Source: Candidatus Eiseniibacteriota bacterium
GTDB taxonomy: Bacteria; Eisenbacteria; RBG-16-71-46
NCBI GenBank assembly: GCA_963717935.1
Contig: CAVQXP010000004.1
Coordinates: 32,001 to 96,000, forward strand
Direction: 5' to 3'
Length of the DNA stretch: 64,000 bases
The notes below the pieces were generated by a model, which saw nothing but the letters and a program-made list of their open reading frames with translations, did no database searches and had not been told where the DNA came from. A program made the position numbers and the translations under genes. Below are positions 7,680 through 63,457 of the stretch, piece by piece; the first letter of the stretch is position 1; the number at the start of each line of letters is the position of its first letter.

Positions 7680-7686
7680 GGCGGGC

Positions 7687-10093: not shown

Positions 10094-10096
10094 GGA

Positions 10097-32358: not shown

Positions 32359-32373
32359 TGGCACACGGCTTGC
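32359..32373 (+). promoter_or_regulatory. sigma54 promoter with no downstream ORF
   Basis: TGGCACACGGCTTGC matches TGGCAC-N5-TTGC exactly. Confidence 0.7.
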
Positions 32374-32542: not shown

Positions 32543-33211
32543 CTAGCGCACGCGGTGCGCCAGCGGGACGGTCACCTTCACGAGCGCGGGCTCCATCACG
32601 CACCAGTCGGGCAGCGACTGGGCCGCGACCTGCACCCGCAGCGTGTCGCGCCGGCCGCCGAGCCGCACGGGCTCGAGCACCACGCTGTCCAGGCGCGCCA
32701 CGGCCGAGCGCGGGCCGGTGACCAGCACGCTCTCGGGGTCCACCATGACGGCGGGGGTCCACGAGGTGTCGCTGCCGGCCGGCACTTCGATGCGGGGCGC
32801 CGCGGGCAGCCAGCGCCGCATCTTGGGCTCGATGCCGATGTCGATGACGCCGGGTCCGATCACGCGGGCCGCCTCGACGCCTTCGTAACCGGCCAGTGGC
32901 AGGTCCGCGGCGGACACCTCCCGCTCGAAACGGCCGGGGCCGATGCCGTCGAGGGAGATCTTGATGGGCGGCTCGGTGACGCGCATCCGCAGGAGTTGCT
33001 TGCCGGTCCCGCGCACCTGCGCCTGTACGGTGGAGGGCACCGGCCCCGAGAGCGAGAGCAGGTCCCCCAGGTCCTGGATCTGGACCGGGAACGACATCGT
33101 CATCTCGGCCGGGCGGTCGAGGTAGACGTTCAGGTAGACGAGCAGCGCCAGCAGCAGGGCAGCCAGCTTGAGTCCGAGGTTGTCGAACAGCAGCCCGCGC
33201 AGCAGGTTCAT
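32543..33211 (-). CDS. YbbR/CdaR-like membrane-anchored protein
   Basis: FDNLGLKLAALLLALLVY TM; VQVRG; VDPESVLVTGPRSAV YbbR-like repeats. Confidence 0.75.
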   Translation of the reverse strand: MNLLRGLLFDNLGLKLAALLLALLVYLNVYLDRPAEMTMSFPVQIQDLGDLLSLSGPVPSTVQAQVRGTGKQLLRMRVTEPPIKISLDGIGPGRFEREVSAADLPLAGYEGVEAARVIGPGVIDIGIEPKMRRWLPAAPRIEVPAGSDTSWTPAVMVDPESVLVTGPRSAVARLDSVVLEPVRLGGRRDTLRVQVAAQSLPDWCVMEPALVKVTVPLAHRVR

Positions 33212-34641: not shown

Positions 34642-34642
34642 G

Positions 34643-46793: not shown

Positions 46794-48276
46794 TCACTCG
46801 AGCCCCAGCGGCACGTAGCGCGTATTGCCGTCGGTCGTCACGAGCAGCACCGCGTGCGCCTTGCCGGCCGCCTTGGCGTCGCGCAGCACCTTCGCGAAGG
46901 CCGCTGCCGACGCCACCGGCTTGCCGCCCACCTCCTCGATCAGGTCGCCCGGCTGCAGCCCCGACTCCTGCGCGGCGCTGCCGTCCTTCGACCGCGGTCA
47001 CGATCACCCCCGACTGCGCGGAGGCACCGGTCCTTCTCCTCGGGCGTGAGGTCGCGCACCCGCAGACCCCCGGGTGCGGGCGCCGGCTCGTCCCCGCCGG
47101 ACGGCCGCGACCGGGCCACCGCCGCGTCCGTGCGCTCGGCCAGCGTCAGCGTGACGGGCAGACGGCGTCCGTCGCGCAGCACGACCAGGTTGATGCGGCT
47201 CCCCACCGGCATATCGGCCACCTGGAGGCGGAACTTCTGCATGTCCGCGACCGGCGCGCCGTTGAGCTCGACGATGACGTCGTTGCGCTTGAGACCCGCC
47301 CGGGCGGCCGGCTGCCCGTCGAGCACGCTCCTGCACCACCACGCCCCTGGTGCCCTTGATGCCGAAGCCCTCCGCCAGCTCGGGGGTCAGTTCCGCCAGC
47401 GTCACGCCCATCCAGGCCCGCTTCACCTTGCCCGAGGCGATGAGCTGCTCGGCCACGTGCTTCGCCAGGTTGATGGGGATGGCGAAGCTGATGCCCTGTC
47501 CGCTCGGGTTGATGGCGGTGTTGATGCCGATGGCCTCGCCGTGGATGTTGCAGAGCGGGCCGCCCGAGTTGCCGAAGTTGATCGAGGCATCGGTCTGGAT
47601 GAAGTCCTGGTACGTCGGCGCGCGCACCGAAGATGTTCAGGTTCGAGCGCCCCTGCGCGCTGATGATGCCCACGGTCACCGAGCCGCGCAGCTCGCCCAG
47701 CGGATTGCCGATCGCGATGGCCCAGTCACCGATGCGCAGCTGGTCCGAGTCGCCCAGCGGCAGCGACGGCAGGTCCCGGCCCTCGATCTTGATGATGGCG
47801 ACGTCGGTCTCCTGGTCGGTGCCGACCACCTTGGCCTTGAAGGTCCGCTTGTCGTTGAGCGTGACGGTGATGGCCTCGGCGTTCGTGACCACGTGGTTGT
47901 TCGTCAGGATGTGCCCCTCGGGGTCGATCAGGAAGCCCGAGCCGGAGGAGGGCTCGACGCGCGGCCGTGAAGGCCGCTCCTGGCCGAAGAAGCGGCGGAA
48001 CATCTCGTCCTGCGGGAACGCCGTCACGCCCGACACGTTCTTCTTCACGTCGATGAAGACGACCGCCGGGAGCGTCTGCTCGACGACTCCGACGAACGGG
48101 CTCTCGAGGGAGCTTCCGCCGCCCGCGATCGCGGGGCGCTCCCGGCGCTGGGCGACGGAGTCGCGCTGCAGGCTGAGCCCGACGCTGAGGCCCAGGCCGA
48201 TCACGAGTCCCGCGAGGATGAGGACCGCTGCCGTGAGGTAGTGGCTGCGCGGCCGGGTGAAAGGCTCACTGCTCAT
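46794..48276 (-). CDS. degP: DegP/HtrA (Do) serine endoprotease with two PDZ domains, frameshifted
   Basis: [49 protein letters not shown] segments. Confidence 0.88.
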
Positions 48277-48601: not shown

Positions 48602-49336
48602 ATGCCCCCCGAGGCCGTGTACTTCATCTCCGACGCCCACCTGGGCGTCGACGATCGCGCGAGCGCGAGGCGGCGCGCGAGGACCGGCTTCACGCTTTCC
48701 TGCACTCGCTGCCCGGCCGCGCCTCCGCCCTGGTCATCGTCGGTGACCTGTTCGACTTCTGGTTCGAGTACCGCACGGCCATCCCGCGGCGGCACTTCGC
48801 CACGCTCGCCATCCTCAAGCGCCTGCGCGAATCGGGCGTGGCGCTCAGCTACCTCAACGGCAACCACGACTTCTGGCTCGGGCGCTTCCTCGCCGGAGAG
48901 GTCGGGATCGAGACGCACGACGGCCCCCTGGCGCTCGCCACGCAGGGCCGCCGGATCTGGCTCCATCACGGGGACGGACTGGTCGGCGGCGACCTGGGCT
49001 ACCGCGTGCTCCGGCGCGTGATCCGCCACCCGCTCAGCATCGCGCTCTACGGACTGCTGCACCCCGACCTCGGCATCCCGCTCGCCCACCAGGTCTCGCG
49101 CTGGTCGCGCCGCTCGCGCGGAGAGCGGCCGCTCGAGCCGGAGCGGCTGTGGCGCGAGATCGCGCTGCCGCGCTTCGCCGAGGGATTCGACACGGTGATG
49201 GTGGGCCACTTCCACCACGTCTACGAGCGGCGCGAGCCGGGCCGCGAGTTCTTCCTGCTCGGCGACTGGATCGACGCGCTTCAGTCACGCGGTGCTCGAG
49301 GACGGCGCGGTGCGGATCGAGAACTGGGGCGCGTGA
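48602..49336 (+). CDS. lpxH: UDP-2,3-diacylglucosamine diphosphatase, frameshifted
   Basis: YFISDAHLG, GDLFDFWFEY, GNHDFW, HHGD, VGHFH, LGDWI. Confidence 0.85.
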
Positions 49337-49345
49337 GCGCGCGGC

Positions 49346-50285
49346 TCAGAACTGTGCGGTGAACGAGATGCGGTGCGTGTCGCCCAGGTCGAGGCGCAGG
49401 GGCACGAAGGCGTAGTCCACGCGCAGGCCGGCGAGCGCGTACCCCACGCCCAGGCTGTAGCTCGACGCGTCGTCGTTCACGCGCAGCCCGCCGCGCAGCG
49501 CGGCGGCGCCCGCGCCGTTCGCTCCGCCCGCGGTGGCGAGCTCCACGCCCAGCATGCCGACGCCGCTGCGGCCGCGCGTGAAGCGGCCCTCGAGCGCCGT
49601 CCGCAACACCGCGCCGGGGGCGAGCGCGCGCTGCCAGGAGCCACCCGTCTGCACCGCCGCCGGCAGCGTCGACGGGCGCGCCCGGGCCACCCTCGAGATT
49701 GAACCGGGCGGCCGGGCCGAGGTTGTACGCGCTGAGCCCCAGCCGCAGACCGCTCACGCGCGCCGGTGCCCATACCGCGCCGAGCCCGGCCGCGCAGGTG
49801 CTGGCCGAGGCGTCGGCGATGCGCTCGCGCAGGACCTGCACGGTGCCGCCCACGCTCAGCCCGGCTGCGACGGAGCGCCCGTAGGCCAGCGCGAACTCGA
49901 GGTCGTGCGCGCCGAAGGAACCGATCAGGTTCCCCAGCACGTCGCGCTCCTCGATGGGCTCGGAGTAGAGCGCGCGGAGCGAGGCCGCGAGCCCACCGCC
50001 GAGGACGCTGGCCCGCGACCACGAACTGCTCGTGGCGCAGCGTCTGCATGTACTCGGCGTGCGTACCGGTGATCTGCGACGCCCTTCACGTCCTCGAGCC
50101 CGGCCGGATTCCAGAAGACCGCCTCGACGCCCTGGGCGAGCGACGCGAAAGCGCCCCCGAGCGCGGAGGCGCGTGCGCCCGCCGGCACCTCGAGGAAGGC
50201 GAAGCCGGACGGAGCGCAGGATGGCGGGCCGTGCGCAGAGCAGGACGAGCACGGCGCACGCCGCCGCGGTGCGGAATGGCTTCAT
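49346..50285 (-). CDS. PorV/PorQ-family outer-membrane protein, frameshifted
   Basis: AFLEVPAGARASALGGAF..AVFWNPAGL; C-terminal VDYAFVP..LGDTHRISFTAQF. Confidence 0.78.
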
Positions 50286-50410
50286 CGAGTCCCCTCGGAG
50301 CGGGCGCCGATCGGCTGAGAGCGGCACCAGGAGGATGCGGGCGAGGCGGAGCCGGCCCTCCCGGCCCCGCTCCTCGCCCACGCGGGTGCGGAGTCTACCA
50401 TGCGGAACGA

Positions 50411-51793
50411 TCAGCCCCGGCCACGCCGCTCACCGCTCGAGCCCCGGTCCGAGCTGCCCCGCGCAGGCTTGGAGCGCGGCGCCGGATTGTCCGGCGGCGG
50501 CGAGGGTCGCGCCTCCTCGCTCGGGCGCTCGTACTTCGGCGGCGCTGGCGAGGGTCGCGTCCCCTTGCTCGGGCGCTCGTACTTCGGCGGCGCTGGCGAA
50601 GGCCGCGTCCCCTTGCCCGGGCGCTCGTACTTCGGCGGCGCTGGCGAGGGTCGCGCCCCCTCGCGCGGGCGAACGTAGCGCCCGCTCCCGGCGGGCCCCC
50701 GGGTCGTTCCCGGCCTGCTCGCCTGGCCGGGCCGCACGCCCGCCTGCGGCCGCACGCCCTGCCCCGGCTCCCCGATGGCCGGGCGGTTCGCCCCGACCGG
50801 CACACGCAGGCGCACGCCGTCCGCACCTCTCACGTACGTACCGGCCAGGAAGCCCGGCGGCAGCGGCTTGCCTTCCTTCCAGCGCGACCAGTCGTAACGA
50901 TTCGGCGGCGTATAGCCCACGGGCGGCGCCGTCTTGTAACGCGTGAGATGGCCGCTCCACAGGACGCTCCATTGCCGCTGGCCGTTCCACGACGAGTAGT
51001 AGGGCCGGTCGTATGGCGCGCACGGATAGCAGCGAGGCACGTAGCAGAAGTAGGGCACGGTGCCGAACCAGTAGCGCGGCCCCCAGCTCCAGCCCCAGTA
51101 GACGCGGAAGTCGAACGCCGAGCAGTTCGTGTAGTAGGGATCGTAGCCGTCCCACCAGGCCCACTGGTTGGGACGGTGGCAGTCGTTGCAGAGGTAGCGC
51201 GGGTAGCGCACGGGCTGGTGGATGTAGTACGAGGTGTAGGCCGTGGCGAAGGTCTCGGGGTCGTTCGCATCGCTCAGCACCTGCCGGCGGATGCGCTCCA
51301 TGGCCACGAACGGGTCGCCCATGATGCGTCCGTCCGAGGTCACGTCCTCGTCGTCCTGCTCCTCGCCCACGTAACCGGCACCCTCGGCCTGGGGATCGTA
51401 GGGACGCAGGAAGCGGGGCAGGGCGTTGAAGGGCTCACGGGAGACGAGGGCCACGATGTAGCCCTGCCCCACGGGCCCCTGCACGACGAGCTGCAGGCCG
51501 GACTGGTAGGGCGGCACCCGGTAGGTCTGCCGGCCCGCGACGTAGCCGCTGCTCCCCTCGTAGGGGTACAGCACGCGCACGTAACCCTCCGAGTCGATGT
51601 CGTAGACCAGCAGGTAGCCCTCGTCGGAGGCGCGCACCTTGATCTCGACCGGCTCGCCCGGCTCGTACACCGCGTCCTTGCCCCGATCGGTCCAGATGTC
51701 CACGCCCATCGCCCGGGCCCGAGCCGCGGGCGGGGCGAGGACGAGCCCGATCATGAGGGCGCCAAGAAGCCACCGCGCTCGGAACATGGTCAC
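50411..51793 (-). CDS. Secreted DUF4384-like protein with Tyr/Trp/Cys-rich region and repetitive tail
   Basis: Signal; VDIWTDRG..YEPGE..YLLVYDIDSEG.VRVLYP; CNDCH; low-complexity C-terminus. Confidence 0.8.
   Translation of the reverse strand: MTMFRARWLLGALMIGLVLAPPAARARAMGVDIWTDRGKDAVYEPGEPVEIKVRASDEGYLLVYDIDSEGYVRVLYPYEGSSGYVAGRQTYRVPPYQSGLQLVVQGPVGQGYIVALVSREPFNALPRFLRPYDPQAEGAGYVGEEQDDEDVTSDGRIMGDPFVAMERIRRQVLSDANDPETFATAYTSYYIHQPVRYPRYLCNDCHRPNQWAWWDGYDPYYTNCSAFDFRVYWGWSWGPRYWFGTVPYFCYVPRCYPCAPYDRPYYSSWNGQRQWSVLWSGHLTRYKTAPPVGYTPPNRYDWSRWKEGKPLPPGFLAGTYVRGADGVRLRVPVGANRPAIGEPGQGVRPQAGVRPGQASRPGTTRGPAGSGRYVRPREGARPSPAPPKYERPGKGTRPSPAPPKYERPSKGTRPSPAPPKYERPSEEARPSPPPDNPAPRSKPARGSSDRGSSGERRGRG
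50499..50670. repeat. About 3.5 copies of a 48-bp coding tandem repeat (16-aa RPSPAPPKYERPxxxx)
   Basis: GGGCGCTCGTACTTCGGCGGCGCTGGCGA recurs at 50523, 50571 and 50619. Confidence 0.9.
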
Positions 51794-51880: not shown

Positions 51881-52336
51881 TTACTTCGGTTTCGTCTTCC
51901 TGGTACCCGGCTCGCGACGGGTCTTCTCCCGGACCTTCAGCTCGCCGGGCCCCGGCAGCTTCCCGGAGGCCACCCCGGCCCGCCATGAATCGTAGTCGCG
52001 CGGCTCACGGTAGCGCCGCTGTGCCCGGTATCCTGCCGGGTAGCGGTAGCGGCCGTACGAGGGGTTCTGCTCCTTGATTCGCACGTAGCGTTCGCGGTAG
52101 ACGCGGACCGTTTCCGGGTGACGGTTCCACGCGTAGCGGAACCCGTAGCCCGCGCACCAGTCGTAGTACGGGTCGAGGTAGCGGTACCCGTGACAATCAT
52201 AGCAGTAGTAGCTCGCCGATGGGCGCCCGGTGGAAGCGTAGGATGCAGTCAGCGGGTAGCGCGATCCGACCCAGATCGCGCAGCCCGGGAGCGCGGCGAG
52301 CACCACGGCCGCGCAGGCTGCCTGTGTCCAGCGCAA
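51881..52336 (-). CDS. Tyr/Arg-rich putative lipoprotein
   Basis: LAALPGC lipobox-like; YYCYDCHG; TTG start behind a GGAGGG RBS. Confidence 0.65.
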   Translation of the reverse strand: MRWTQAACAAVVLAALPGCAIWVGSRYPLTASYASTGRPSASYYCYDCHGYRYLDPYYDWCAGYGFRYAWNRHPETVRVYRERYVRIKEQNPSYGRYRYPAGYRAQRRYREPRDYDSWRAGVASGKLPGPGELKVREKTRREPGTRKTKPK

Positions 52337-52347
52337 GAGAGCCCCTC

Positions 52348-53193
52348 CTACTGGTGCAGCCAGACGATGGGCCGCCGCTGCGACACGCCTTCTTCGGTCG
52401 CCGGTGTCGCCTTCAACTCGCGGTTGCCCGGGTCGATCTGGTAGGCCCAGTCGAGCGTGATCTGGGTCGGCCCCACGGCGGTGACGCGGAACTTGGCGTA
52501 GTGGTTGTCACGGGTCCAGACCACGTAGGCATGCCCTACGACGGCCTCGACCGTGCCGCTCGGGGACCAGCCCGAATCGGGAGCGAAGTCCACGGCGTCG
52601 AGCGAGGACGTGTACCCCGCATCCTGGATATCGGTCGAGGGGTCCGGGACGAAGACCTGCTGGTGGATGAGCCCGGTCGTGTCCTCGTAGTAGCCGAAGA
52701 AGATGTCTGCCGGCGGTTCGGTGGTGAGGGTCCGCGCAAAGGCCGAGAAGTCGTAGCCGATGTCCGTGCTGTAGACCAGGTAGTTGTTGAGCACCAGCCC
52801 GGTGCCCGCCGGCCGGGGCGTGTCGAAGACGTTGTCGTAGCTGAGGTCGCCCTCGACGCCCGCATGGTTCACCGCCGCGACCGCGAAGAAGCGCGGCACG
52901 CCGTTCACCAGGCCGGTCACCACGTACTCGACGTATTCGGCGCCCGTCGGCGCCGGAAGGACCGCGATGCGCGTGTAGAGGCAGTCCGGCTCGCCGCACG
53001 GCGACTCGTAGACGCGGTAGCCGACCACATCGGCCTCGGTGTTCGCCAGCCAGACCAGCGTGACCTCGTTGTCGCCGGTGACACTGAACAACCCCCGCGG
53101 AGCCGCGGGCGGCAGGACGGGGGCCGTGGTCCTCTCGCTGCATCCACCGAGGAGGATGCCGAGCGCCACGAGGGGCAGAAGCAGCCTGTTCAT
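52348..53193 (-). CDS. Putative lipoprotein with FN3-like domain and HmuY-like C-terminal region
   Basis: MNRLLLPLVALGILLGGC lipobox; PAAPRGL..VTLVW..GYRVY..GLVNG..FAVAAVN; YVVWTRDNHYAKF. Confidence 0.75.
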   Translation of the reverse strand: MNRLLLPLVALGILLGGCSERTTAPVLPPAAPRGLFSVTGDNEVTLVWLANTEADVVGYRVYESPCGEPDCLYTRIAVLPAPTGAEYVEYVVTGLVNGVPRFFAVAAVNHAGVEGDLSYDNVFDTPRPAGTGLVLNNYLVYSTDIGYDFSAFARTLTTEPPADIFFGYYEDTTGLIHQQVFVPDPSTDIQDAGYTSSLDAVDFAPDSGWSPSGTVEAVVGHAYVVWTRDNHYAKFRVTAVGPTQITLDWAYQIDPGNRELKATPATEEGVSQRRPIVWLHQ

Positions 53194-53248
53194 CAGTTTC
53201 CCTCCGGTCAGGCGTGGCGGTGATGGAGCCATTCGCCGGCATCATAGG

Positions 53249-53263
53249 GCAATGGCCGTGCCA
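53249..53263 (-). promoter_or_regulatory. sigma54 promoter of the lipoprotein/DUF4384 operon
   Basis: TGGCACGGCCATTGC, a perfect TGGCACG-N4-TTGC match. Confidence 0.8.
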
Positions 53264-53323
53264 TGCCACATCGCCGTCCGCACGCGGCGGGGCGCGGGCA
53301 CAACCCCCTGCGGGTCAACGCGG

Positions 53324-53366
53324 AAGAAGCGAGGAGCCGCCCTGCGGAAGGCCCGCGGAGCGGCTC
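53324..53366 (-). terminator. Intrinsic terminator-like hairpin
   Basis: Minus strand GAGCCGCTCCGCGG-GCCTT-CCGCAGGGCGGCTC followed by CTCGCTTCTT. Confidence 0.55.
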
Positions 53367-53753
53367 GATCGTGCGCCTCGGACGCAGGTGTGAACCTTGC
53401 GCCACACCGTCCTGCACGCACACACGCAACAGGACACCGGCCTGTTGCAGATGCGGCCAGCCGGGACATCCCCCAATGTCGGCCAACCACGTCTTCGACC
53501 GGTGCCCTGAAACCCGAAGCGGGCCGGGTCTGCGCGTTGAGGCTGCAGAGACCGGGTATGCTTGCTTTCTCGGCGGCAGGCGCCGACCCACTCCGGGTGG
53601 TGTTTTCGTGATCCAAGCTAGGCGGTCGCAGAGGACGGTGCGTTGTCTAGTGACTGGGGCTCGTACCCTCGACCGGATCCCCCGCAGTGCCGCCTAGCCC
53701 AGACTGTCGTCCGGCAGCATCACCGGATTTCTTGGAGGTCCCCCCCTCCGCGG
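53324..53753 (-). ncRNA. Candidate ~430-nt structured sigma54-dependent ncRNA
   Basis: Bounded by a sigma54 promoter and a terminator; about 10 consecutive stem-loops; no credible ORF. Confidence 0.55.
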
Positions 53754-53763
53754 GCAGACGAGC

Positions 53764-53779
53764 AGCACGCGCCGTGCCA
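53764..53779 (-). promoter_or_regulatory. sigma54 promoter upstream of the candidate ncRNA
   Basis: TGGCACGGCGCGTGCT; IHF-like TGCAA-N4-TTA at 53808-53819; inverted repeat AACCAT-N11-ATGGTT at 53886-53908. Confidence 0.65.
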
Positions 53780-54082
53780 GCCCGGAGTCAGCCCAGTACG
53801 ATTCTCTTAACTCGTTGCACTGCAACTGACACGAGGTCTTGGCGGACTCACCGGCAAGGTCACTCGGAAGGCCCAGACCCGGGGAAACCATGAAGACATT
53901 TTATGGTTCCACGACCTCTCGGCTAAGCGCATGGTTCGCATGGTCTTCGATGTGAAGGAGTTTGATAACGCGATTGGCAATGGACCTGCGCATCAGGCCT
54001 GGGGCCAGAGGCGCGCCGGGAAGACAAGGCTGAGGGGAGGCCTGGAGAGGACCCCGGGAGGTCCCGCGTGCAGCGCGCGAGG

Positions 54083-57000
54083 CTACGAGCGGCGGCGCTC
54101 GAGCTCGAGGTTGCGGATCCTGGCGAGCAGCGTCGGATAGCTCAGGCCGAGCTCGCGCGCCACCTTCGCCTTGTTCCAGCGGTGCCGGTCCAGGGCCTCG
54201 GAGATCACGCGGCGCTCGAGCTCCGAGACGCTCGAGCGCAGGCTGCGGCCCGCCTCGCCCCCGTTGCCCGCGGCAGCCGCCACGGCCCGCGTGGCCGGCT
54301 CGCGCATCTCGGGCGGCAACAGGTCGAGCCCGAGCAGATCGCCCTCGTCCGCGAGCACGACCAGGCGTTTCACCGTCTTGTCCAGCTCCCGCACGTTGCC
54401 GCGCCACTCGTGCGCCAGGAACAGCTGCATCACTTCGGGACTGAATCCGCGGACGTTCTTCTCCATCTGGCGCGAGTACACGTTGAGGAAATGCTGCGCC
54501 AGCACCGGGATGTCCTCGCGCCGCTCGCGCAGCGCGGGCACGCGCACCGTGATGTCGTTGAGCCGGTAGTAGAGGTCCTCGAGGAAACGGCCCTCCCGGA
54601 TGCGTTCGCGCAGGTCCACGCCGGTGGCGCAGATCACGCGCGCGTCCACGCGCTTGCTCCGCGTGGCGCCCACCGGGCGGATCTCGCCGCGGTCCAGCAC
54701 GTGCAGCAGCTTCGCCTGCACCGACTCGGGCACCTTCTCGATCTCGTCGAGGAAGATGGTCCCGCCCTCGGCCTCCTCGAAGAGTCCCTGCTTGTCGCGC
54801 ACCGCTCCGGTGAAGGCGCCGTGCACGTAGCCGAACAACTCGCTCTCGAGCAGCGACTCGGGCAGCGCCGCGCAGTTCACCTGGACGAACGGCCGGTCGC
54901 GACGGTTCGAGGACTCGTGCACGACCTGCGCGAGCAGGCCCTTGCCCGTCCCGGTCTCGCCCATGAAGAGCACCGTGGCCGAGCTGTCGCCGACCTTCGA
55001 GAGCAGGGCGAGGAGGCCCTTCATCTCGCGCGAGGCGGTCACCACGCGATCCATGCCCGCGCTCGGCCTCAGCTTGTCCCGCAACTCGCGGTTCTCGGCC
55101 AGCAGCAGGGACCGCTGCGCCTCGACGATCGCCACCGCCGCGCTGTTCGCCAGCACCGCGAGCAGGTTCACGTCGCGCTGCTTGAACGGCCCCAGCAGGT
55201 TGTCGTTGAGCCGGTCCACGAACACCAGCCCCACCGACTGCGAGGGGAAGTTGAGCGGCACGCAGACCAGCGAGGCGACGCTCTCCAGCGCGTCGGCCAC
55301 CGCGACGCCGAAACGCGGATCGGCGGCCACGCGGCTGGAGAACACCGGACCGCTCTCGGCCAGGCGCGAGCCCACCGCCTCTTCCAGCGCGCGCAGGATG
55401 CGCCGCGCCCGGTCACGGCCCAGGCCATGCTGAGCGACCACGTCGAGCCTCACGCCCCCGCTCGAGAACGCCACGAAGCCGCGGTCCCCGCCGGCATTCT
55501 CCACCGCGAGCTTGACGGTCTGGGCGAGCAGCCCGTCCATGTCCGAGGTCTCGCGGAACAGGCGGTTCGCGTCCTCGAGCGCGCGGAACTCGTTGCTCGT
55601 GGAGAGCGAGACGGCGACGTACTGGCGCTCGATCTCGCGCCGCAGCGCCTCGGCCCGCCCGCCCGCGGGCGCACCGGCCTCCAGCAGCCAGAGTTCGGCC
55701 TGTTCGAGCAGCCCCAGCGCCTGGTCGTAATGCTCGCGCTCGGTCTCGAGGCGGGCGAGTGTGAGCAGCGCCTCGGAGGCGAGCGGCACCACGCCGAACT
55801 GGCGGAACAGAGTCGCCGCGCGCTTGGCCGCGTCGGCCACCGGCTCGAGCGGCAGGCGCAGCCGGGCGCTGGCCGGCAGCAGCAGCAGGAAATCGCCCCA
55901 CGCCGCCAGCGTGGTGGCCAGCTCGTAGGACTCGCCCAGGGTCTCGAAGGCCTGTGCCGCCGCGAGGATCTTGGCCTGCGCTCCGGCCGCGTTGCCGCGC
56001 ACGGCGTCGAGCTGGGCCAGCGCGCGGTCGGCGATGGCGGCCTCGATGCTGTCGCCCAGCTGCGCGGCCAGCGCCGCGCCGCGCACCAGGTGCGCCTGCG
56101 CCTCGGGCGTGCGCCCGGCCGCGAGCAGCGCGAGCCCCATCCGGGTCTCGAGCTCCGCGACCAGGTCGCCCTGCGGTGCGCTGCGGCGCGCTTCGTCGAG
56201 CGCGGGCTCGAGCAACGCGAGCGCCGCCATGACGTCGCCGCGGTCCAGCGCCAGCTCGCCCAGGAACTCGCGGGCCAGCGTCGCCTCGCGCAGCGCGCCC
56301 ACGGGCAGCGCCAGCTCGAGCGCGCGCCGGAAGTGCTCCTCGGCGGATTCCAGCTGGCGCCGGCGCCGCGCGAGCAGACCGGTCGCCAGCAGCGCCGCGG
56401 CCTCGCCCTGCAGGTGGCCGGTCTCACGGGAGATCTTCAGCGACTGACGGAAGTTCTCCTCGGCAAGGTCCCACTGCCCCAGGCGGTAGCGGATCAGGCC
56501 CAGGTTCTGGTTGTGCCCGCGCATGCGGGAGTAGAGGCCCGCGCGCTCGTCGAGGCGCAGCGCCTGCTCCAGGAAGCGTGTGGCCTCACGCCACTCGCGC
56601 AGGTTCTTGTAGACCAGCCCGAGGTTGTTGAGCGCGGTGACCAACCCGTCGGTGTCGTCGATGCGGCGGAAGGTGGCGGCCGCGTTCTGCAGCCACTCGA
56701 TGGCCTCGCCGGTGCGGCCCTGGCGCGTCGCGCACAGCCCGAGGGTCACCGCGACCTCGCCGACCGCGTGGTGCTCGTCGGTGTCGCGAAGCACGCCGTA
56801 GGCGTACAGCGCGTAGCGGCGGCTGCGGCGGTACTGCCCCTGCTGGATGAGCGCGCCGGCGAAGCGGGCCGCGATGACCGCGGTCTGGCGCGGGTCGCCG
56901 AGCAGGCGGGCCGCGGCGCGCGCTTCACGGAGGGTGGCAACCGCGGGCTCGTATTCGCCGTGGGCCGTGTGCACCCTGGCCACGCTGAGCAGGAGCCGCA

Positions 57001-57175
57001 CACGCTCCCCGGGAGCCTCGGGACCGACCGTCTTCAGCGCGGCGCGGTATTCCTCGAGTGCTTCCGAGAAGTTGTCGGCCGCCAGATGCAGATCGCCGAT
57101 CGCCTCATGCTGGCCGGAGCCGGCACGACCGGCGCCTGCTGCATGAGCCAGATCGGGGGGGATCGCTCTCTGCAC
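54083..57175 (-). CDS. TPR-GAF-AAA+-HTH sigma54-dependent activator (1030 aa)
   Basis: About 500 aa of TPR repeats (ALNNLGLVY, NLGLIRY), a GAF domain, GETGTGK, ESELFGYVHGAFTGA, FLDEIE, GNVREL, Fis HTH; no REC domain. Confidence 0.92.
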   Translation of the reverse strand: MQRAIPPDLAHAAGAGRAGSGQHEAIGDLHLAADNFSEALEEYRAALKTVGPEAPGERVRLLLSVARVHTAHGEYEPAVATLREARAAARLLGDPRQTAVIAARFAGALIQQGQYRRSRRYALYAYGVLRDTDEHHAVGEVAVTLGLCATRQGRTGEAIEWLQNAAATFRRIDDTDGLVTALNNLGLVYKNLREWREATRFLEQALRLDERAGLYSRMRGHNQNLGLIRYRLGQWDLAEENFRQSLKISRETGHLQGEAAALLATGLLARRRRQLESAEEHFRRALELALPVGALREATLAREFLGELALDRGDVMAALALLEPALDEARRSAPQGDLVAELETRMGLALLAAGRTPEAQAHLVRGAALAAQLGDSIEAAIADRALAQLDAVRGNAAGAQAKILAAAQAFETLGESYELATTLAAWGDFLLLLPASARLRLPLEPVADAAKRAATLFRQFGVVPLASEALLTLARLETEREHYDQALGLLEQAELWLLEAGAPAGGRAEALRREIERQYVAVSLSTSNEFRALEDANRLFRETSDMDGLLAQTVKLAVENAGGDRGFVAFSSGGVRLDVVAQHGLGRDRARRILRALEEAVGSRLAESGPVFSSRVAADPRFGVAVADALESVASLVCVPLNFPSQSVGLVFVDRLNDNLLGPFKQRDVNLLAVLANSAAVAIVEAQRSLLLAENRELRDKLRPSAGMDRVVTASREMKGLLALLSKVGDSSATVLFMGETGTGKGLLAQVVHESSNRRDRPFVQVNCAALPESLLESELFGYVHGAFTGAVRDKQGLFEEAEGGTIFLDEIEKVPESVQAKLLHVLDRGEIRPVGATRSKRVDARVICATGVDLRERIREGRFLEDLYYRLNDITVRVPALRERREDIPVLAQHFLNVYSRQMEKNVRGFSPEVMQLFLAHEWRGNVRELDKTVKRLVVLADEGDLLGLDLLPPEMREPATRAVAAAAGNGGEAGRSLRSSVSELERRVISEALDRHRWNKAKVARELGLSYPTLLARIRNLELERRRS

Positions 57176-57280
57176 GTTCGAACCCTCGAGTCACATCACC
57201 CGGTTGGGCATCCCGTCGGTTCGACTCCGGGATGCCGTTGGTGTTGCGTAGAGCTTGGATGCCCCAGCGGTCAGGCGGGG

Positions 57281-57604
57281 CTACCTCGCTCCAAGATATC
57301 GAATCGCCCACGTCCTCCTGACGATCCAGCGGAACCATGCGTCGGCGCGCGAACCCTGCGAACTTCCGTTCTCGCCACGCGGGGCCGGTGACATCGAGCC
57401 CGTCGTGGGTTCGGCGCGTGGGGTCTGACCGACATCGGGCTCCCCAGAAGTCGTGACCACAGGTGGTTTCGCCGCGTCCGCAAGGGATGAGAAGACATCA
57501 GGCGAATCCGTCTTCCCACCCGCGAGCGCGGGCGTCCAACCTGCGGTGGCGACCACCGAAAGCAGGACCAGCAGGAACAGGAGTCTGTTGCGTTCAGAAA
57601 GCAT
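57281..57604 (-). CDS. Small secreted protein (107 aa) upstream of the TPR activator
   Basis: GGAGGGA RBS; signal MLSERNRLLFLLVLLSVVATAGWTPALA; disordered S/P/T/G-rich middle; Trp/Arg-rich C-terminus. Confidence 0.65.
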   Translation of the reverse strand: MLSERNRLLFLLVLLSVVATAGWTPALAGGKTDSPDVFSSLADAAKPPVVTTSGEPDVGQTPRAEPTTGSMSPAPRGENGSSQGSRADAWFRWIVRRTWAIRYLGAR

Positions 57605-57726
57605 GTGCTGCCGCTCCCTCCGAGGCTGGTGGCTGTGAACCACAGTACCTGACCGCCCGGGGTTGGAGCCGCCCCGGACGAATCCGAACCTGAGGGGACC
57701 TCGTCTACTACCGCGCCACGACAACA

Positions 57727-57755
57727 AGTATCCGGCGGTCGTCCGCGAGCGTCAA
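57727..57755 (-). promoter_or_regulatory. sigma70-like promoter of the small protein/TPR activator operon
   Basis: TTGACG-17-GATACT on the minus strand. Confidence 0.55.
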
Positions 57756-57776
57756 CAGCAACTTCACCGACGCCCC

Positions 57777-58826
57777 TTAGGATGCGTCCGGGCGCGGAGC
57801 GGACCGGGCCTTGCTGCCGCGTGGCAGGGGCGGGGCGCCCGGGACCTGGCCGGCCGGCACGGGACCGGGGGGGGGCTGCCGGCGGTCGAGCAACTCCCCG
57901 ACGGCCATGCGCACCAGCCCGTAGCGAAGCCCCTGGGTGGAGCATACGAGCGCCGACGAGGGGAAGCGCTCGAAGAGCAGGGCCACGACCAGGGCGCCAG
58001 CCACGACGATGTCGGCCCGGCCTTCTCCCACGGTGGAGAGGCCCCTGCGATCCGCGTGGCACGATCGGGAAAGATGGTCGACCAGCCCGGAAAGCCGCTC
58101 GGGACGGATGGACCAGCCCTCGAGGAGCGCCGGATCGTAACTCTTGAGCTGGCGGTCCATAGAGGCAAGGACCGTGACCGTTCCGCCGACACCCACGAGG
58201 AGTGGGACCTTCTCCGGCATCAATGCACAATGATGCATGATTCCAGCCTGCACCTCGGCCCGCAGAGCCATGATCTCTCCCGGGTCAGACGGGTCGGAGC
58301 GCAGGAACCGCTCGGTCAGGCTGACCGCGCCAAACGGCAGGCTGGCCCACCTTCCGGCCTGCGGCCCCACCCCGCTGACGACCTCGGTGCTGCCCCCGCC
58401 GATGTCGAAGGCGACGCAGGCGCTATGGGCTGCGCTGCGCCCCAGGCCGAGGACGACCGAGCGGTAGACCAGTTGCGCCTCGTCGTCGCCGGTGAGCACG
58501 CGAACGGGCAGCCCCGAACGACGTTCGACGATGCCGGCCACCTCGGCCCCGTTGCGGGCGTTGCGGATGGCGGCGGTCGCGCCGATCACGATGTGCTTCG
58601 CTCCCAGCGACCGCGCGCGCCGCACGAATTCCGCCGCCAGACCGCCGGCCCTCTGCGCCAACTCCTCCTCGATGCTCCCGGCCCGGTCGAGCCCCCGCGC
58701 CAGACGGCAGACCTCGCCCGCCCTGGCCACCGTCTCCAGCGTCCCGCCCGGGCCGCCGCGTTCGTCCACGTCGGCGACCAGGAGTCGGATGGAGTTGGAT
58801 CCGATATCAATTGCAGCTACGCGCAT
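57777..58826 (-). CDS. ppx: Ppx/GppA family exopolyphosphatase
   Basis: AAIDIGSNSIRL, ATAAIRNARN, DEAQL, DIGGGSTE, GVGGTVT, RADIVVAG, GLRYG. Confidence 0.92.
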   Translation of the reverse strand: MRVAAIDIGSNSIRLLVADVDERGGPGGTLETVARAGEVCRLARGLDRAGSIEEELAQRAGGLAAEFVRRARSLGAKHIVIGATAAIRNARNGAEVAGIVERRSGLPVRVLTGDDEAQLVYRSVVLGLGRSAAHSACVAFDIGGGSTEVVSGVGPQAGRWASLPFGAVSLTERFLRSDPSDPGEIMALRAEVQAGIMHHCALMPEKVPLLVGVGGTVTVLASMDRQLKSYDPALLEGWSIRPERLSGLVDHLSRSCHADRRGLSTVGEGRADIVVAGALVVALLFERFPSSALVCSTQGLRYGLVRMAVGELLDRRQPPPGPVPAGQVPGAPPLPRGSKARSAPRPDAS

Positions 58827-58842: not shown

Positions 58843-59406
58843 TCAGAGGAGATAGTCTTCGAGGTCACCCGGCCTCCGTGCCGGCATGGAGTCGGCAACT
58901 GCTTGTCGATCTTCCTGTTCAAGGCCCAATGGACTTGCCGGGCCGTTTGATTCCGGCTCTGCCTCTGGGGATCGGACGGATTCTTCCGGAGGTCGCATGG
59001 CGCCGGTCGGCCGCGCCCGGCGGGCGGCCTCCGTCCGGACCTTTCGCTCTGGAAACCCGACCACCGCCGGGGCAGACCGGGTCAGGTGATGCTCCATCCC
59101 GGCGGCCAACGCCTCCGGTCCGGCCCCCGAGAGCGCCCAGCCCAGAAGCTCGCTGAGCCCCGGCGCTTCGGCCTGCAGCCTGAAACGCACCCGCCGGCCC
59201 TCCCGGCACCCCTTCACCAGGCCCACGCGCTCGAGCGCCTGCAGGTGGCGGGTCGTGCACGACTGCGACAGACCGACCACCTCGGCCAGCTCACCCACAC
59301 ACCGGTCGCCCGCGGCCAGGGCCCTGACCAGCCGGAAGCGCGAGGCCACCCCGAGACAGGCCAGAACGGTCCGTGTGTGAGTCTCCTGCAGGTCGGATTC
59401 ATTCAT
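58843..59406 (-). CDS. ArsR/SmtB family transcriptional regulator with disordered C-terminal tail
   Basis: SRFRLV..CVGELAEVVGLSQSCTTRHLQALERVGLV..REGR. Confidence 0.8.
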   Translation of the reverse strand: MNESDLQETHTRTVLACLGVASRFRLVRALAAGDRCVGELAEVVGLSQSCTTRHLQALERVGLVKGCREGRRVRFRLQAEAPGLSELLGWALSGAGPEALAAGMEHHLTRSAPAVVGFPERKVRTEAARRARPTGAMRPPEESVRSPEAEPESNGPASPLGLEQEDRQAVADSMPARRPGDLEDYLL

Positions 59407-59496
59407 TGCACAGCGATGCATATCACATCCCGCGATTGACCGCAATGACTTGGCTCTGATAGTTTTCGCACAACTCGGCCATAACCGTGCGCCACC

Positions 59497-60596: not shown

Positions 60597-62114
60597 GTGA
60601 GCCTCCGCGCCCGTCTGATCGCGGCCCTGCTGGCGCTCGCGCTCCTGCCGACCGCGGTCTTCACGCTCTTCACGCTGGTCGAGCTGGACCGCGCCACGCA
60701 GGGCTGGTTCCGCCCCGGCGTGGACCGTGCCCTCGAGTCGGCCCAGCAGGTGAGCCGCACCGCGCTCACGCGGATGGAGGCCACCGCGCTCTCCCAGGCC
60801 GCCGCCTGGGCCCGCGGGGCTCCTGCTGCGCGCCTCGACCCCGCCGCTCGCGCCCGCACGCGCGCGGGGCTGCGCGACGCGGGGCTCGACTTCCTGCAGA
60901 TCTACCGCCGCACCGACGGCCGCTGGGAACTGCTCGAACAGGTGCTGCCCGCGGGGGTGCTCGGGACCCGTGGCGCGGACTTCGGCGGCGAGCTGGACGC
61001 CGCGCTCGCCGGCGATTGCCTGGTGCGCTCGAGCCACGGCGCGCTCGCCGGCGTGGCCCCGCTGGACACCACCCACGCGCTCGCGGTGGGCATGTGGGTG
61101 CCGGCCGACTTCTTCGCCGACGTGGAGCGCGTGAGCGAGGGACGCGGCGCCTACAGCCAGCTCGGCGTGATGGTGGACGTGCAGCGCCCGCTCACCTGGC
61201 TGCTGGTCGCGGGGCTCGTGCTCCTGCTGGCGGCGCTCGCGCTGCTCCTCGCCCACGCGCTCGCGCGTCCCATCGCGCGGCCCCTCAGCGAACTGTCGGT
61301 CGCGTTGGACCGCGTGGCCGACGGAGACCTGCGGGTGCGGGTGGCGCCCCGCGGAGCGCGCGAGCTGCGAATGCTCGGCATGGCCTTCAACGCCATGACC
61401 GCGCGGCTCGAGGAAGCGCGGACGGCGATGGCCGAGGCGGAGCGCGAGGCGGCCTGGCGCGACGTGGCACGCAAGCTGGCGCACGAGTTCAAGAACATCC
61501 TCACGCCGCTGAAGCTCTCCCTGCAGCTGATCGAGGCGGAGCTCGAGGCCGCACCGGGCGCGCGGGCGGACACCGGCGTGAACCTCCAGGCCGCCCTCGG
61601 GGAGGTGGCCCAGCTGGCGCGGCTCGCGGACCAGTTCTCCCAGTACGCGCGCCTGCCCGAGCCGCACCTGGAACCGCTCGACCTGGCCCAGGTGGCCCGT
61701 TCGGCAGCGGGCCGTCCGATGTGCGAAGGTGTGAGTGTCGCCTGCGCACCCGGGGAGCCCGTGCCGGTGCGGGGCGACCGGGTTCTGCTGGCGCGCGCCG
61801 CGCACAACCTGGTGCTCAACGCGTGCGAGGCGAGCCCCGCGGGCGCGACGGTGGAGGTCGCTGCGCGGCGCGAGCACGGGCGCGCGGTGCTCGAAGTGCT
61901 GGACCGCGGCCCCGGCCTGCCGGCCGGGCTCGCCGACCGGCTGTTCGAGCCCTACGTGAGCACGAAGCGGCGCGGCAGCGGTCTGGGCCTCTCGCTGGTG
62001 CGCGACATCGCGCGGCAGCACGGCGGGACGGTGTCACTGGAGAACCGCGAGGGCGGTGGGGCATGCGCGCGGCTCGTGCTGCCGCCGGCGAAGGAGGGCG
62101 AAGTCCACCGATGA
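60597..62114 (+). CDS. NtrY-like HAMP sensor histidine kinase
   Basis: Two TMs, HAMP (AFNAMT), AAWRDVARKLAHEFKNILTP, FEPYVSTK, GSGLGL. Confidence 0.92.
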   Translation: MSLRARLIAALLALALLPTAVFTLFTLVELDRATQGWFRPGVDRALESAQQVSRTALTRMEATALSQAAAWARGAPAARLDPAARARTRAGLRDAGLDFLQIYRRTDGRWELLEQVLPAGVLGTRGADFGGELDAALAGDCLVRSSHGALAGVAPLDTTHALAVGMWVPADFFADVERVSEGRGAYSQLGVMVDVQRPLTWLLVAGLVLLLAALALLLAHALARPIARPLSELSVALDRVADGDLRVRVAPRGARELRMLGMAFNAMTARLEEARTAMAEAEREAAWRDVARKLAHEFKNILTPLKLSLQLIEAELEAAPGARADTGVNLQAALGEVAQLARLADQFSQYARLPEPHLEPLDLAQVARSAAGRPMCEGVSVACAPGEPVPVRGDRVLLARAAHNLVLNACEASPAGATVEVAARREHGRAVLEVLDRGPGLPAGLADRLFEPYVSTKRRGSGLGLSLVRDIARQHGGTVSLENREGGGACARLVLPPAKEGEVHR

Positions 62115-63457
62115 GCACGGAAGAGCGGCTGGAGATCCTGGTGGTGGACGACGATCCGGCCATCCGGAGCGCCCTGCGGCGGGCGCTCGAGGGCGCCGGG
62201 CACGTCGTGCAGGAGGCCGCGGACGCAGCCGAGGGCCTGGCCCGGCTGGATCCGCGGGCGACGGACGTCGTGCTGCTCGACATCAACCTGCCCGGGCTCG
62301 ACGGACTCGACGCGCTCGAGCGCTTCCGCGAGCAGGCCCCGGTCACGGCGGTCATCATGGTGACCGGCGAGGCGACGCTCGCCAACGCGATGCGGGCGGG
62401 CCAGCGTGGCGCCTACGATTTCATCGAGAAGCCGCCCGACCTGCCGCACCTGCTCGGGGTCGTGGCCGAGGCCGGACACGTCGCGCGGTTGCGCCGCCGG
62501 CCGGCCGCCCCGCCCGGCGAGCCCGAACTCGGCATCGTGGGGCGGAGCGCGGCCCTGCAGGCCGTGCTCGAACAGGCCCGCCGCATCGCGCCATCCCAGG
62601 GGCGCGTGCTCATCACCGGGGAGAGCGGCTCGGGCAAGGAGCTCTTCGCCTACCTGATCCACGCGCTCTCGAAGCGCGCGGACGGGCCGTTCGTGAAGCT
62701 CAATTGCGCGGCCATCCCGCGGGACCTCCTCGAGAGCGAGCTGTTCGGCTACGAGCGGGGCGCGTTCACCGGGGCCGTGGCGGGCAAGAAGGGCCGCCTC
62801 GAACTGGCCGACCGGGGCACGCTGTTCCTCGACGAGGTCGGCGACCTGTCGCTCGAGGCGCAGGCCAAGCTGCTGCGCGCCATCGAGACCGGTGAGGTCG
62901 AGCGCCTGGGTGGCACCAAGACCTCGCGCGTGGACGTGCGGATCGTGGCTGCCACGCACAAGGATCTCGCCACGGCCGTCCCCGAAGGCGAGTTCCGCGA
63001 GGATCTCTACTACCGCCTCAACGTGTTGCCGATCCACGTGCCGCCGCTGCGCGAGCGCCGCGGCGACCCGGTCCTGCTGGCCGGGCACTTCCTGGCGACG
63101 TTCTGCCACGCCGAGGAGAGGCCGCCGAAACGGCTGAGCCCCGAGGTGCAGCAGGTGCTGGAGGACTACCACTGGCCGGGGAACGTGCGCGAACTGCGCA
63201 ATCTCATGGAGCGCGCCGTCGTCCTCGTGCCGGGCGAGGAGATCCGCGCCGAGGATCTGCTGCCCTGGCTCGAGAGCGCGTCCAGCCGCGAGGAGACGGC
63301 GGGGCTGCGCGGCGAGATCGAGCGGCGCGAGGCCGACGCCATCCGCAAGGCCCTGGAGAACGCGGGCTGGAACGTGACGCAGGCCGCGGCGAGCCTCGGG
63401 ATCGACCGCACGAACCTGCACCGCAAGATGCGCAAGTACGGCATCAGCCGCCGCTGA
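62111..63457 (+). CDS. NtrX/NtrC-family sigma54-dependent response regulator
   Basis: ATG at 62111; VVDDD, LLDINLP, GESGSGK, GAFTGA, WPGNVREL, HTH. Confidence 0.95.
   Translation: MSTEERLEILVVDDDPAIRSALRRALEGAGHVVQEAADAAEGLARLDPRATDVVLLDINLPGLDGLDALERFREQAPVTAVIMVTGEATLANAMRAGQRGAYDFIEKPPDLPHLLGVVAEAGHVARLRRRPAAPPGEPELGIVGRSAALQAVLEQARRIAPSQGRVLITGESGSGKELFAYLIHALSKRADGPFVKLNCAAIPRDLLESELFGYERGAFTGAVAGKKGRLELADRGTLFLDEVGDLSLEAQAKLLRAIETGEVERLGGTKTSRVDVRIVAATHKDLATAVPEGEFREDLYYRLNVLPIHVPPLRERRGDPVLLAGHFLATFCHAEERPPKRLSPEVQQVLEDYHWPGNVRELRNLMERAVVLVPGEEIRAEDLLPWLESASSREETAGLRGEIERREADAIRKALENAGWNVTQAAASLGIDRTNLHRKMRKYGISRR

Follow-up and report, generated by a model that had tools for sequence, protein, structure and literature searches.

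A conserved locus of Eisenbacteria

The 64-kb stretch of Candidatus Eiseniibacteriota DNA analyzed here (hereafter the window; guanine plus cytosine (GC) content ~70%) encodes, all on the minus strand, a small exported protein, a sigma54 activator endowed with TPR and GAF domains, a structured RNA set between two sigma54 promoters (P1 and P2), and an operon for surface proteins. Small protein, activator, RNA and operon make up a real module conserved across Eisenbacteria. Every element listed in an initial annotation of this DNA was recovered in the window and is kept across Candidatus Eisenbacteria, the small open reading frame (ORF), the sigma54 site and the RNA accompanying the activator gene in 52/52, 49/50 and 49/49 loci, respectively. 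The refuting case named in that annotation, homologous activators devoid of these companions, did not materialize.

Seventy-nine loci were obtained by scanning species-representative genomes. The Eisenbacteria orthologues are L001-L055 and L067, the 23 loci fetched from other lineages L056-L066 and L068-L079. Activators are mostly 67-93% identical among the Eisenbacteria orthologues, 61% in L067, a fragment at a contig end, and the closest relatives of the window activator are labelled Candidatus Eisenbacteria or Eiseniibacteriota. The gene order arsR-ppx-small ORF-activator-gap-lipoprotein-DUF4384 is kept across Eisenbacteria loci, as monitored by tblastn. The lipoprotein gene and the DUF4384 homologue are found in synteny downstream of the activator in 45 loci, and the gap between activator and lipoprotein genes measures 750-1085 nucleotides (nt) in all the 45 loci featuring both. 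The features of the window are listed below in the direction of transcription.

58843-59445, minus strand: gene for an ArsR-type helix-turn-helix (HTH) protein
57777-58826, minus strand: Ppx/GppA phosphatase gene
57727-57755, minus strand: sigma70-like promoter, TTGACG-17-GATACT (promoter scan, 9/12 positions)
57281-57604, minus strand: GEPD-family exported small protein, 107 amino acids (aa), with signal peptide, disordered middle and W-rich amphipathic C-terminal helix
54083-57175, minus strand: predicted sigma54 enhancer-binding protein, 1030 aa (TPR ~18-540, GAF 545-683, AAA+ 712-877, lid, HTH_8 983-1021)
Gap between activator and lipoprotein genes, minus strand: 889 nt
53883-53982, minus strand: AT-richer region 5' of P1, GC 0.62, with dyads
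53808-53817, minus strand: IHF-like CAA-N4-TTR core upstream of P1
53765-53779, minus strand: sigma54 promoter P1, TGGCACGGCGCGTGC, one mismatch
53610-53753, minus strand: 5' domain of the RNA (profile matches, covariation)
53508-53609, minus strand: variable central region of the RNA (alignment, window fold)
53419-53507, minus strand: 3' domain of the RNA, or terminator-like hairpin T1 (covariation, single folds)
53368-53409, minus strand: 42-nt conserved element, nGGTGTnGCGCnnnnCnCACACnTGnGnCnnnnnCGCAC (conservation in 46 sequences)
53322-53366, minus strand: terminator-like hairpin T2, GAGCCGC...GCGGCUC plus CUCGCUUCUUCC
53301-53310, minus strand: IHF-like CAGGGGGTTG upstream of P2
53249-53263, minus strand: sigma54 promoter P2, TGGCACGGCCATTGC, no mismatches
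52348-53193, minus strand: lipoprotein, first gene of the P2 operon (lipobox LLGGC; weak fibronectin-III-like match)
51881-52336, minus strand: 151-aa ORF, putative P2 operon
50411-51793, minus strand: DUF4384 protein, putative P2 operon
49281-50381, minus strand: weak PorV/PorQ-like outer-membrane protein, putative P2 operon

The structured RNA and its sigma54 promoters

When the gap of the window was compared with the other loci by blastn, positions 53760-53620 were matched in 44/45 loci, and a second block at ~53520-53440 in up to 32. According to nhmmer profile searches, the window and 49 loci each contain exactly one copy of the 5' domain of the RNA (E 6e-38 to 6e-26), and likewise of the 3' domain; these 49 are all the Eisenbacteria loci reaching past the activator gene. 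Neither domain was found by profile search in the 23 loci from other lineages. Stretches of the RNA are invariant across 46 aligned sequences (45 loci and the window), though the proteins encoded nearby are 45-75% identical.

A structure model was derived from the alignment and RNAalifold. The 5' domain features an invariant hairpin, GGAGG-GGGGGA-CCUCC (53734-53749), a variable hairpin which covaries, and a 14-bp helix closing a multi-helix domain with the invariant GAGGGUACGAGCCCC. The central region varies both in length and sequence; the ACCCGGUC motif is present in many loci, and a long hairpin in the fold of the window. In the window the T1 stem GGGCACCGG...CCGGUGUCC encloses the invariant loop CAUUGGGGGAUGUC (53465-53480), and is followed by a U-rich tail. 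In the alignment, the stem GGACACCGG/CCGGUGUCC surrounds covarying inner helices and an invariant CA(C/U)UGGGGGAUGU hairpin.

At the 39 pairs of the 5' domain 96.9% of the alignment cells are paired, and 91 cells carry double changes versus 25.5 upon shuffling (0/500 shuffles). Of the 21 pairs of the 3' domain 15 show compensatory changes, with 92.9% of the cells paired (0/500 shuffles). In slid controls, 28-54% and 30-46% of the cells are paired in the 5' and 3' domains, respectively. The minus strand is the strand transcribed: read on the opposite strand, the invariant G-U pairs turn into A-C mismatches. For the window RNA (53753-53425) the folding energy is -169.2 kcal/mol (z = -4.88, 0/100 shuffles); single-sequence folds include the closing helix in 42/42 sequences, the 5' hairpin in 37/44 and the long-range stem of T1 in 41/44. 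A stricter test, based on exact indices, gave 18/42 for the 5' hairpin and 7/42 for T1, and was superseded as too strict. Both fold energy and covariation bear out the stretch of structured non-coding sequence proposed in the initial annotation.

Every sequence has open frames of 57-161 codons on its forward strand, which is no surprise at ~70% GC, and the interval from P1 to P2 might encode a small protein, its RNA structure being incidental. We regard this as extremely improbable. Column entropy by phase reveals no 3-nt period in the RNA (0.625/0.687/0.620, also 1.08/1.12/1.11), unlike the coding control provided by the activator gene (0.645/0.512/0.968). In 18/46 sequences none of the three forward frames of the 5' domain is free of stops, indels are of arbitrary length, and base-pair changes are compensatory. 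By these measures the P1 transcript is non-coding.

No Rfam 15 family matches positions 52000-58500 at E up to 1, and none the whole window at gathering score; RNase P, tmRNA, 6S RNA, riboswitches and large non-coding RNAs were rejected on this ground. As judged from alignment and fold, the RNA is a new, well-supported structured family of unusual size and conservation. Protein-sponge RNAs of the CsrB/RsmZ type display many GGA motifs in hairpin loops; in the module RNA two invariant G-rich loops end in GGA (53734-53749 and 53465-53480). From its size, its junctions and the two identical GGGGGA loops, the RNA may be a protein-binding, base-pairing or multi-target regulator.

Sigma54 promoters were searched as TGGCAC-N5-TTGC with up to one mismatch. 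The window contains 7 such motifs versus 3.2 expected, and 4/100 shuffles reach 7. The count in the window alone is not significant, so the case for sigma54 rests on comparative data, and the feature of these sites which rises above chance is their positional conservation in other genomes. The strict P1 pattern (up to one mismatch) is found in 34/45 loci; relaxed to TGGCA[CT]-N5-nTGC, the site ends 13-15 nt upstream of the invariant RNA hairpin in 49/50 sequences, L009 carrying CGGCAC. Because this spacing is fixed, transcripts are expected to start 2-4 nt before the hairpin. P1 starts 200-320 nt past the stop codon of the activator gene. P2 (up to one mismatch) is located 48-103 nt upstream of the lipoprotein start in 46/46 sequences. 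One perfect TGGCAC-N5-TTGC at 32359-32373 (plus strand), with a YbbR-like ORF on the opposite strand, may have arisen by chance and was dropped.

At both P1 and P2 a TTGn-N6-CAA-N4-TTR element is located ~30-60 nt upstream of the -24 box, and in 20/50 sequences the CAA-N4-TTR portion at P1 belongs to the bin of -30 to -39 relative to the -24 box. These elements presumably resemble the IHF core. The GC content is 0.62-0.63 at 53650-54099, and 0.66-0.79 nearby. Thus the AT-richer region upstream of P1 noticed in the initial annotation is confirmed, along with P1, which has one mismatch in the window, and the second, perfect sigma54 promoter. Upstream of P1 the window carries a TATCAA-type half-dyad at ~53968, a CTTAG centre at 53923-53927 and a dyad, GGAACCAT-N-ATGGTTTCC, at 53883-53910. 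TATCAA-N6-TTGATA-type dyads reside at ~-190 to -170 upstream of P1; elsewhere in the window 2 weak matches to this pattern were found versus 0.73 expected, nothing notable. TTAG or TTAC is found 140-149 nt upstream of the P1 -24 box in 35/50 sequences, and once sequences are anchored on this motif, all are spaced at 146-149 nt save for L039 (138 nt). Many loci (L002-L054, e.g. L054, L007 and L022) feature, ~100-190 nt past the activator stop codon, a GC-rich palindrome centred on CTTAG, whose arms covary and after which comes a T tract; the hairpin is weak in the clade of the window. The CTTAG-centred palindrome is probably the terminator of the activator operon, a reading which leaves over the fixed spacing of 146-149 nt.

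Transcripts from P1 would measure ~325 nt to T1 and ~435 nt to T2. At least 5 T residues in 12 nt make up the tail of T1 in 29/42 sequences; a hairpin with a free energy of -12 or lower and a T-rich tail is found at T2 in 14/42, an underestimate resulting from a crude fixed-window scan. The 42-nt element found between the two hairpins conforms to nGGTGTnGCGC-N4-CnCACACnTGnGnC-N5-CGCAC, and at many of its positions conservation among 46 sequences reaches 90% or more. The window contains no second copy of the element (position weight matrix score 39.8, 4.0 for the next best site), which is located ~110-150 nt upstream of P2. The HTH of the activator is nearly invariant, and its site should be so too; this is why the element is read as an enhancer, and we infer that it is the best candidate for the upstream activating sequence of P2. 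It could also be the 3' part, or tail, of a longer RNA; its variation, by eye, is not compensatory.

The RNA is co-oriented with, and directly upstream of, the lipoprotein operon in 45/45 loci. Two terminator-like hairpins separate its body from the operon, and its complex conserved 5' domain could be an aptamer. It might thus be a cis-acting leader, akin to a riboswitch or an attenuator, with transcripts from P1 either stopping at T1/T2 or reading through, and P2 being internal. We consider this unlikely. P2 is found, with an IHF-like site of its own, between RNA and gene in 46/46 sequences, and because of this conservation the operon needs no P1. The invariant loop of T1 is far more conserved than an expression platform requires, no alternative antiterminator pairing is seen by eye upstream of T1, and T1 is ~240 nt away from the start codon.

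Among the proteins of the putative P2 operon, the lipoprotein matches fibronectin III at E 4e-4, below cutoff, and the PorV family match scores 40 bits versus a cutoff of 90. Genes for an HtrA-like protease and an AmiA/C-like amidase are located downstream of the PorV/PorQ-like ORF. The HtrA/DegP-like protease gene (46940-48276, minus strand) is split in overlapping frames, trypsin at 47146-48276 and PDZ at 46940-47326, which may denote a frameshift or an assembly error.

The TPR-GAF activator and its small exported partner

Pfam families detected in the activator are TPR (residues ~23-330), GAF (545-683), Sigma54_activat (PF00158, 712-877, E 2.1e-64) and HTH_8 (PF02954, 983-1021, E 2.2e-11), the latter a C-terminal HTH of the Fis type; the Pfam scan found no receiver domain. 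GAFTGA, at residues 786-791, is invariant in 32/32 orthologues, as are Walker A (GETGTGKG) and DEIE, and the HTH is nearly invariant among the aligned orthologues. With an AAA+ domain carrying Walker A and B, GAFTGA and a Fis-type HTH, the protein has the predicted makeup of a sigma54 enhancer-binding protein, and the initial annotation was correct in describing a 1030-aa activator with ~500 aa of TPRs, a GAF domain, intact GAFTGA and no receiver domain.

The AlphaFold2 (AF2) model of residues 1-540 is made exclusively of TPR-like helices, 26 in number (pLDDT 91.7, pTM 0.88). The best Foldseek matches in the Protein Data Bank (PDB) are TONSOKU and APC5 (TM 0.68-0.71), LGN/Pins, APPBP2, OGT and Tom71, generic TPR superhelices which bind peptides or tails. 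By sequence, generic TPR proteins are the only PDB matches to the N-terminal half among the 60 listed. NifA 9qq6_C, a solved structure, can be aligned with residues 532-1029 from one end to the other (E 2e-75). The best NCBIfam model is the nifA equivalog (TIGR01817), but the score is 328.8 bits, under the cutoff of 528.85, and no nitrogenase-related Pfam family was found in the 52 window ORFs scanned.

At least 120 homologue clusters of the activator are 70% or more identical. When a profile built from 32 activator orthologues was searched against 1.84 billion representatives, ~90 of the best 150 matches were full-length single-stretch proteins of 960-1060 aa. All the 30 representatives of ~1000 aa scanned feature TPR, sigma54 AAA+, lid and HTH_8, GAF being detected at 1e-5 in a subset of them. 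In three longer proteins (P0235, P0253 and P0343, 1693-1998 aa) a Ser/Thr kinase is located N-terminal to TPR-GAF-AAA+-HTH, and two of them add a STAND-like AAA_16 domain. Since the 30/30 representatives and the long forms share it, the architecture is widespread. In the literature searched no description of a TPR-containing sigma54 activator was found, TPR being met solely as a COG label, and the part available of a 2025 comparative paper reports only receiver, PAS, GAF, PRD and V4R domains as activator sensors (PMC12316311). The same search found nothing on sigma54 in Eisenbacteria, and nothing relevant on Eisenbacteria non-coding sequences.

An ORF with a signal peptide is located between ppx and the activator gene in all the sequences including upstream DNA (49 by an automatic rule; L041, L051 and L052 by eye in the ORF listing). 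In the window it starts MLSERNRLLFLLVLLSVVATAGWTPALA. The AF2 model shows two helices, an N-terminal one at residues 2-22 and a C-terminal one at 85-103; residues 23-84 between them are devoid of regular structure. In a 35-sequence alignment mean column identity is just 30%; the n-region (R.RLL), the AxA site and the W-rich amphipathic C-terminus are conserved, and the (S/T)GEPD motif is invariant. The mature protein would measure ~80 aa. The small protein matches no Pfam or NCBIfam family; a profile search returned 74 proteins, all unnamed, "hypothetical" or "Secreted protein", Eisenbacteria being the sole organism named, and the nearest Atlas clusters are Eiseniibacteriota hypotheticals. Boxes like TTGAC[GC]-N16-19-(G)ATACT are found 5' of the ORF in 49/49 sequences (48 loci and the window). 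Both the sigma70-like promoter (TTGACG-17-GATACT, 57755-57727) and the 107-aa protein with a signal peptide (ORF 57281-57604, N-terminal helix modelled) foreseen in the initial annotation are thus in place. The 5' untranslated region of the small ORF (57605-57640, minus strand), including the GGAGGGAGCGG Shine-Dalgarno region, is conserved across loci at the nucleotide level, which shows up as the recurring pseudo-peptides HQSWRER and PVVEGAG in different frames.

The RRNPP regulators of Firmicutes (Rap, NprR, PlcR, PrgX) feature a TPR sensor encoded beside the gene of a small exported pro-peptide. A small-precursor gene of the kind is adjacent to the activator gene in 52/52 sequences, by analogy, no homology to Phr, PapR or NprX being claimed. 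By the same logic the small protein might be exported and processed, and a fragment of it, such as GEPD or the C-terminal helix, might re-enter the cell, bind the concave face of the TPR domain and activate the sigma54 promoters. We hold this to be unlikely. The small ORF is co-oriented with the activator gene under a shared conserved promoter, the protein is mostly disordered with one invariant short motif, and the best TPR fold matches were solved with bound peptides or tails (TONSOKU-H3, LGN-Insc/NuMA, APPBP2-degron). Yet neither RRNPP nor MalT structures are among the 50 Foldseek matches listed, nor RRNPP sequences among the 60 PDB matches listed, and no family of oligopeptide permeases (Opp-type) is found among the 52 window ORFs scanned. 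Mature exported protein and cytoplasmic receptor reside in different compartments, and a motif invariant across the phylum argues against strain-specific signalling; with its invariant GEPD, the small protein is easier to reconcile with a fixed partner or ligand than with pherotypes that diversify. The co-variation of precursor and TPR, proposed as a check in the initial annotation, was measured and is weak: distances of the small protein correlate with those of TPR at rho 0.32 (partial 0.21), barely above AAA+ (0.27), and with GAF at 0.06, and since small-protein distances are near saturation (mean 0.76) the correlations are weak guides.

A case from another phylum bears on this point. In the Zixibacteria locus L068, a TPR-containing activator homologue (L068:7815-10742, 31% identity) is preceded by a 113-aa ORF (7440-7778, plus strand) with a signal peptide and a W-rich C-terminus, devoid of GEPD. 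This single case suggests that a small exported partner could be general for this type of activator. However, the ORF aligns to the GEPD profile through the signal peptide alone (probability 68%), and homology to the GEPD family is not supported. L068 carries sigma54-like sites, at 7223 (plus strand) and 7008 (minus strand), 5' of both its small ORF and a divergent lipoprotein gene; the RNA was not found there by profile search. In a variant which we likewise consider improbable, TPR would read a fragment of the GEPD protein, or its unexported precursor, and the main output would be the RNA (~330 nt), the twin GGGGGA loops capturing a global RNA-binding protein. If true, a sigma54 circuit which senses a peptide or protein by RRNPP-like logic would be known for the first time from a diderm phylum.

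Elsewhere in the window, an intein featuring a LAGLIDADG homing-endonuclease domain splits the DnaB replicative helicase (2839-5505, minus strand), and a Gp49-like (HigB-type) toxin ORF is located beside an HTH_3/XRE antitoxin-like ORF (9737-10468, minus strand), likely a toxin-antitoxin pair.

The proposed circuit and related systems

The reading we favor, and consider fairly probable, is that of a phylum-wide Eisenbacteria module in which the activator, co-expressed with the small protein, turns on the RNA from P1 and the outer-membrane operon from P2. A promoter of the sigma70 type would co-express the small exported protein and the cytoplasmic activator, which would sense a signal through the TPR superhelix (~520 aa) and GAF. 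The activator would assemble on nearby enhancer DNA, either the 42-nt GGTGT...CACAC...CGCAC element, or the AT-rich dyads upstream of P1, or both, and open one or both of the tandem sigma54 promoters, each with an IHF-like element. P1 would make the structured non-coding RNA, starting 2-4 nt before the invariant hairpin, and P2 would drive the operon for the lipoprotein, the DUF4384 protein and the PorV-like outer-membrane protein. Acting in trans, the RNA would be the RNA arm of an envelope or surface response. The analysis shows the sequences and how they are conserved, the fold of the RNA and its lack of coding; we infer that the activator acts on the promoters and the RNA in trans, as well as what is sensed and what the small protein does. 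Support for the link of activator to promoters is positional, namely adjacency in 49/49 loci and the precedents of cbrB-crcZ and nla19-pxr.

Several observations weigh against this reading. The conserved motifs upstream of P1 and P2 differ, the 42-nt element being absent upstream of P1, so that no more than one can be an obvious enhancer common to both promoters. A simple terminator scan of the window flagged neither T1 nor T2, their T tracts being interrupted; the RNA may accordingly end at either of them, and transcription may read through into the operon. The ACA-loop-GGA-UGU arrangement of the G-rich loops presumably resembles a CsrA ligand. The action of the activator on P1 and P2 is to be taken as putative. 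The window also encodes two other sigma54 response-regulator activators, each paired with a histidine kinase (33208-35971, minus strand; 60597-63457, plus strand), so the genome is rich in sigma54 activators.

With several activators in the genome, P1 and P2 might be driven by another enhancer-binding protein and the TPR-GAF activator act elsewhere, adjacency being simply inherited gene order. That no shared enhancer motif joins P1 and P2, and that the 42-nt element occurs once in 64 kb, would fit this view, which we nonetheless judge rather improbable. The adjacency is kept in 49/49 loci across lineages whose flanking proteins have diverged to 45-60% identity, and precedents place such RNAs beside their own activator (PMC5113210, PMC5568312).

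If the favored circuit holds, the module would provide, for the first time, a concrete set of targets for TPR-GAF sigma54 activators, a large class so far uncharacterised, and a testable pairing of one such activator with a tiny exported protein. Should the pairing be one of signal and receptor, it would extend the peptide-receptor logic of Firmicutes to sigma54 control in diderm bacteria. All parts of the module are of a length that allows reconstruction in a laboratory host, and as Eisenbacteria are uncultured, their physiology can be approached in few ways, conserved non-coding elements being one of them.

Various known systems share portions of this arrangement. Envelope-stress regulons may include an RNA arm, as sigmaE with MicA, RybB and MicL, or Cpx with CpxQ. 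There, as proposed here, one regulator serves both envelope genes and an RNA, and the neighbours of the module encode lipoprotein, PorV-like, HtrA-like and amidase proteins. In contrast, control of the module would be based on sigma54 and its activator, and the RNA is far larger and more structured; a stress role is suggested by the neighbouring genes alone. RRNPP regulators have as output an HTH repressor or activator, or a phosphatase, whereas that of the module would be a sigma54 AAA+ motor, in a diderm phylum of the FCB group, and the small protein of the module is ~80 aa when mature, with one motif invariant across the phylum. NifA/NorR-type regulators resemble the GAF-AAA+-HTH half of the activator, which features an extra TPR domain of 530 aa; no nif genes are present in the scanned ORFs, the proposed targets being an RNA and an outer-membrane operon.

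In Vibrio, luxO and qrr1 are adjacent, and the sigma54 activator controls the RNA. According to PMC10162802, qrr1 is driven by two activators, and in Pseudomonas aeruginosa the sigma54 activator of the ntrC-nrsZ pair controls a neighbouring regulatory RNA (PMC4253122). LuxO and NtrC differ from the module activator in being phosphorelay response regulators with no exported small-protein gene in the operon, and Qrr are Hfq-dependent small RNAs of ~100 nt.

The layout of activator gene and RNA is shared by cbrB-crcZ of Pseudomonas and nla19-pxr of Myxococcus xanthus. crcZ is located downstream of cbrB, just 3' of the sigma54-activator gene, has its own -24/-12 promoter, and depends on CbrB and RpoN; CrcZ acts in trans and, like the module RNA, is a few hundred nt long (PMC5113210). 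CbrB, however, is a response regulator with a receiver domain, while the activator of the module is of the TPR-GAF type. CrcZ uses repeated A-rich Hfq/Crc motifs, the module RNA a multi-helix fold with two G-rich loops, and no Rfam family, including CrcZ, matches the latter. The pxr gene is found downstream of nla19 behind a predicted sigma54 promoter, and the likeness extends to the intergenic position 3' of a sigma54-dependent regulator gene, the multi-stem-loop structure and the synteny across a lineage (PMC5568312). Yet the pxr gene spans 108 nt versus ~325-435 nt of the module RNA, Nla19 is a response regulator, and there is no match in sequence or structure.

The interpretation given in the initial annotation is supported in part. 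The annotation had regarded the architecture as unprecedented. This does not hold for the succession of activator gene and RNA, known from cbrB-crcZ and nla19-pxr (PMC5113210, PMC5568312); what lacks prior characterisation is the family of the RNA, the sensor made of TPR and GAF, and the exported partner conserved beside them. The module RNA shares its predicted -24/-12 promoter, its non-coding sequence and its location directly 3' of the activator gene with the sigma54-driven RNAs encoded beside their activators, and the annotation was right to draw an analogy to such RNAs.

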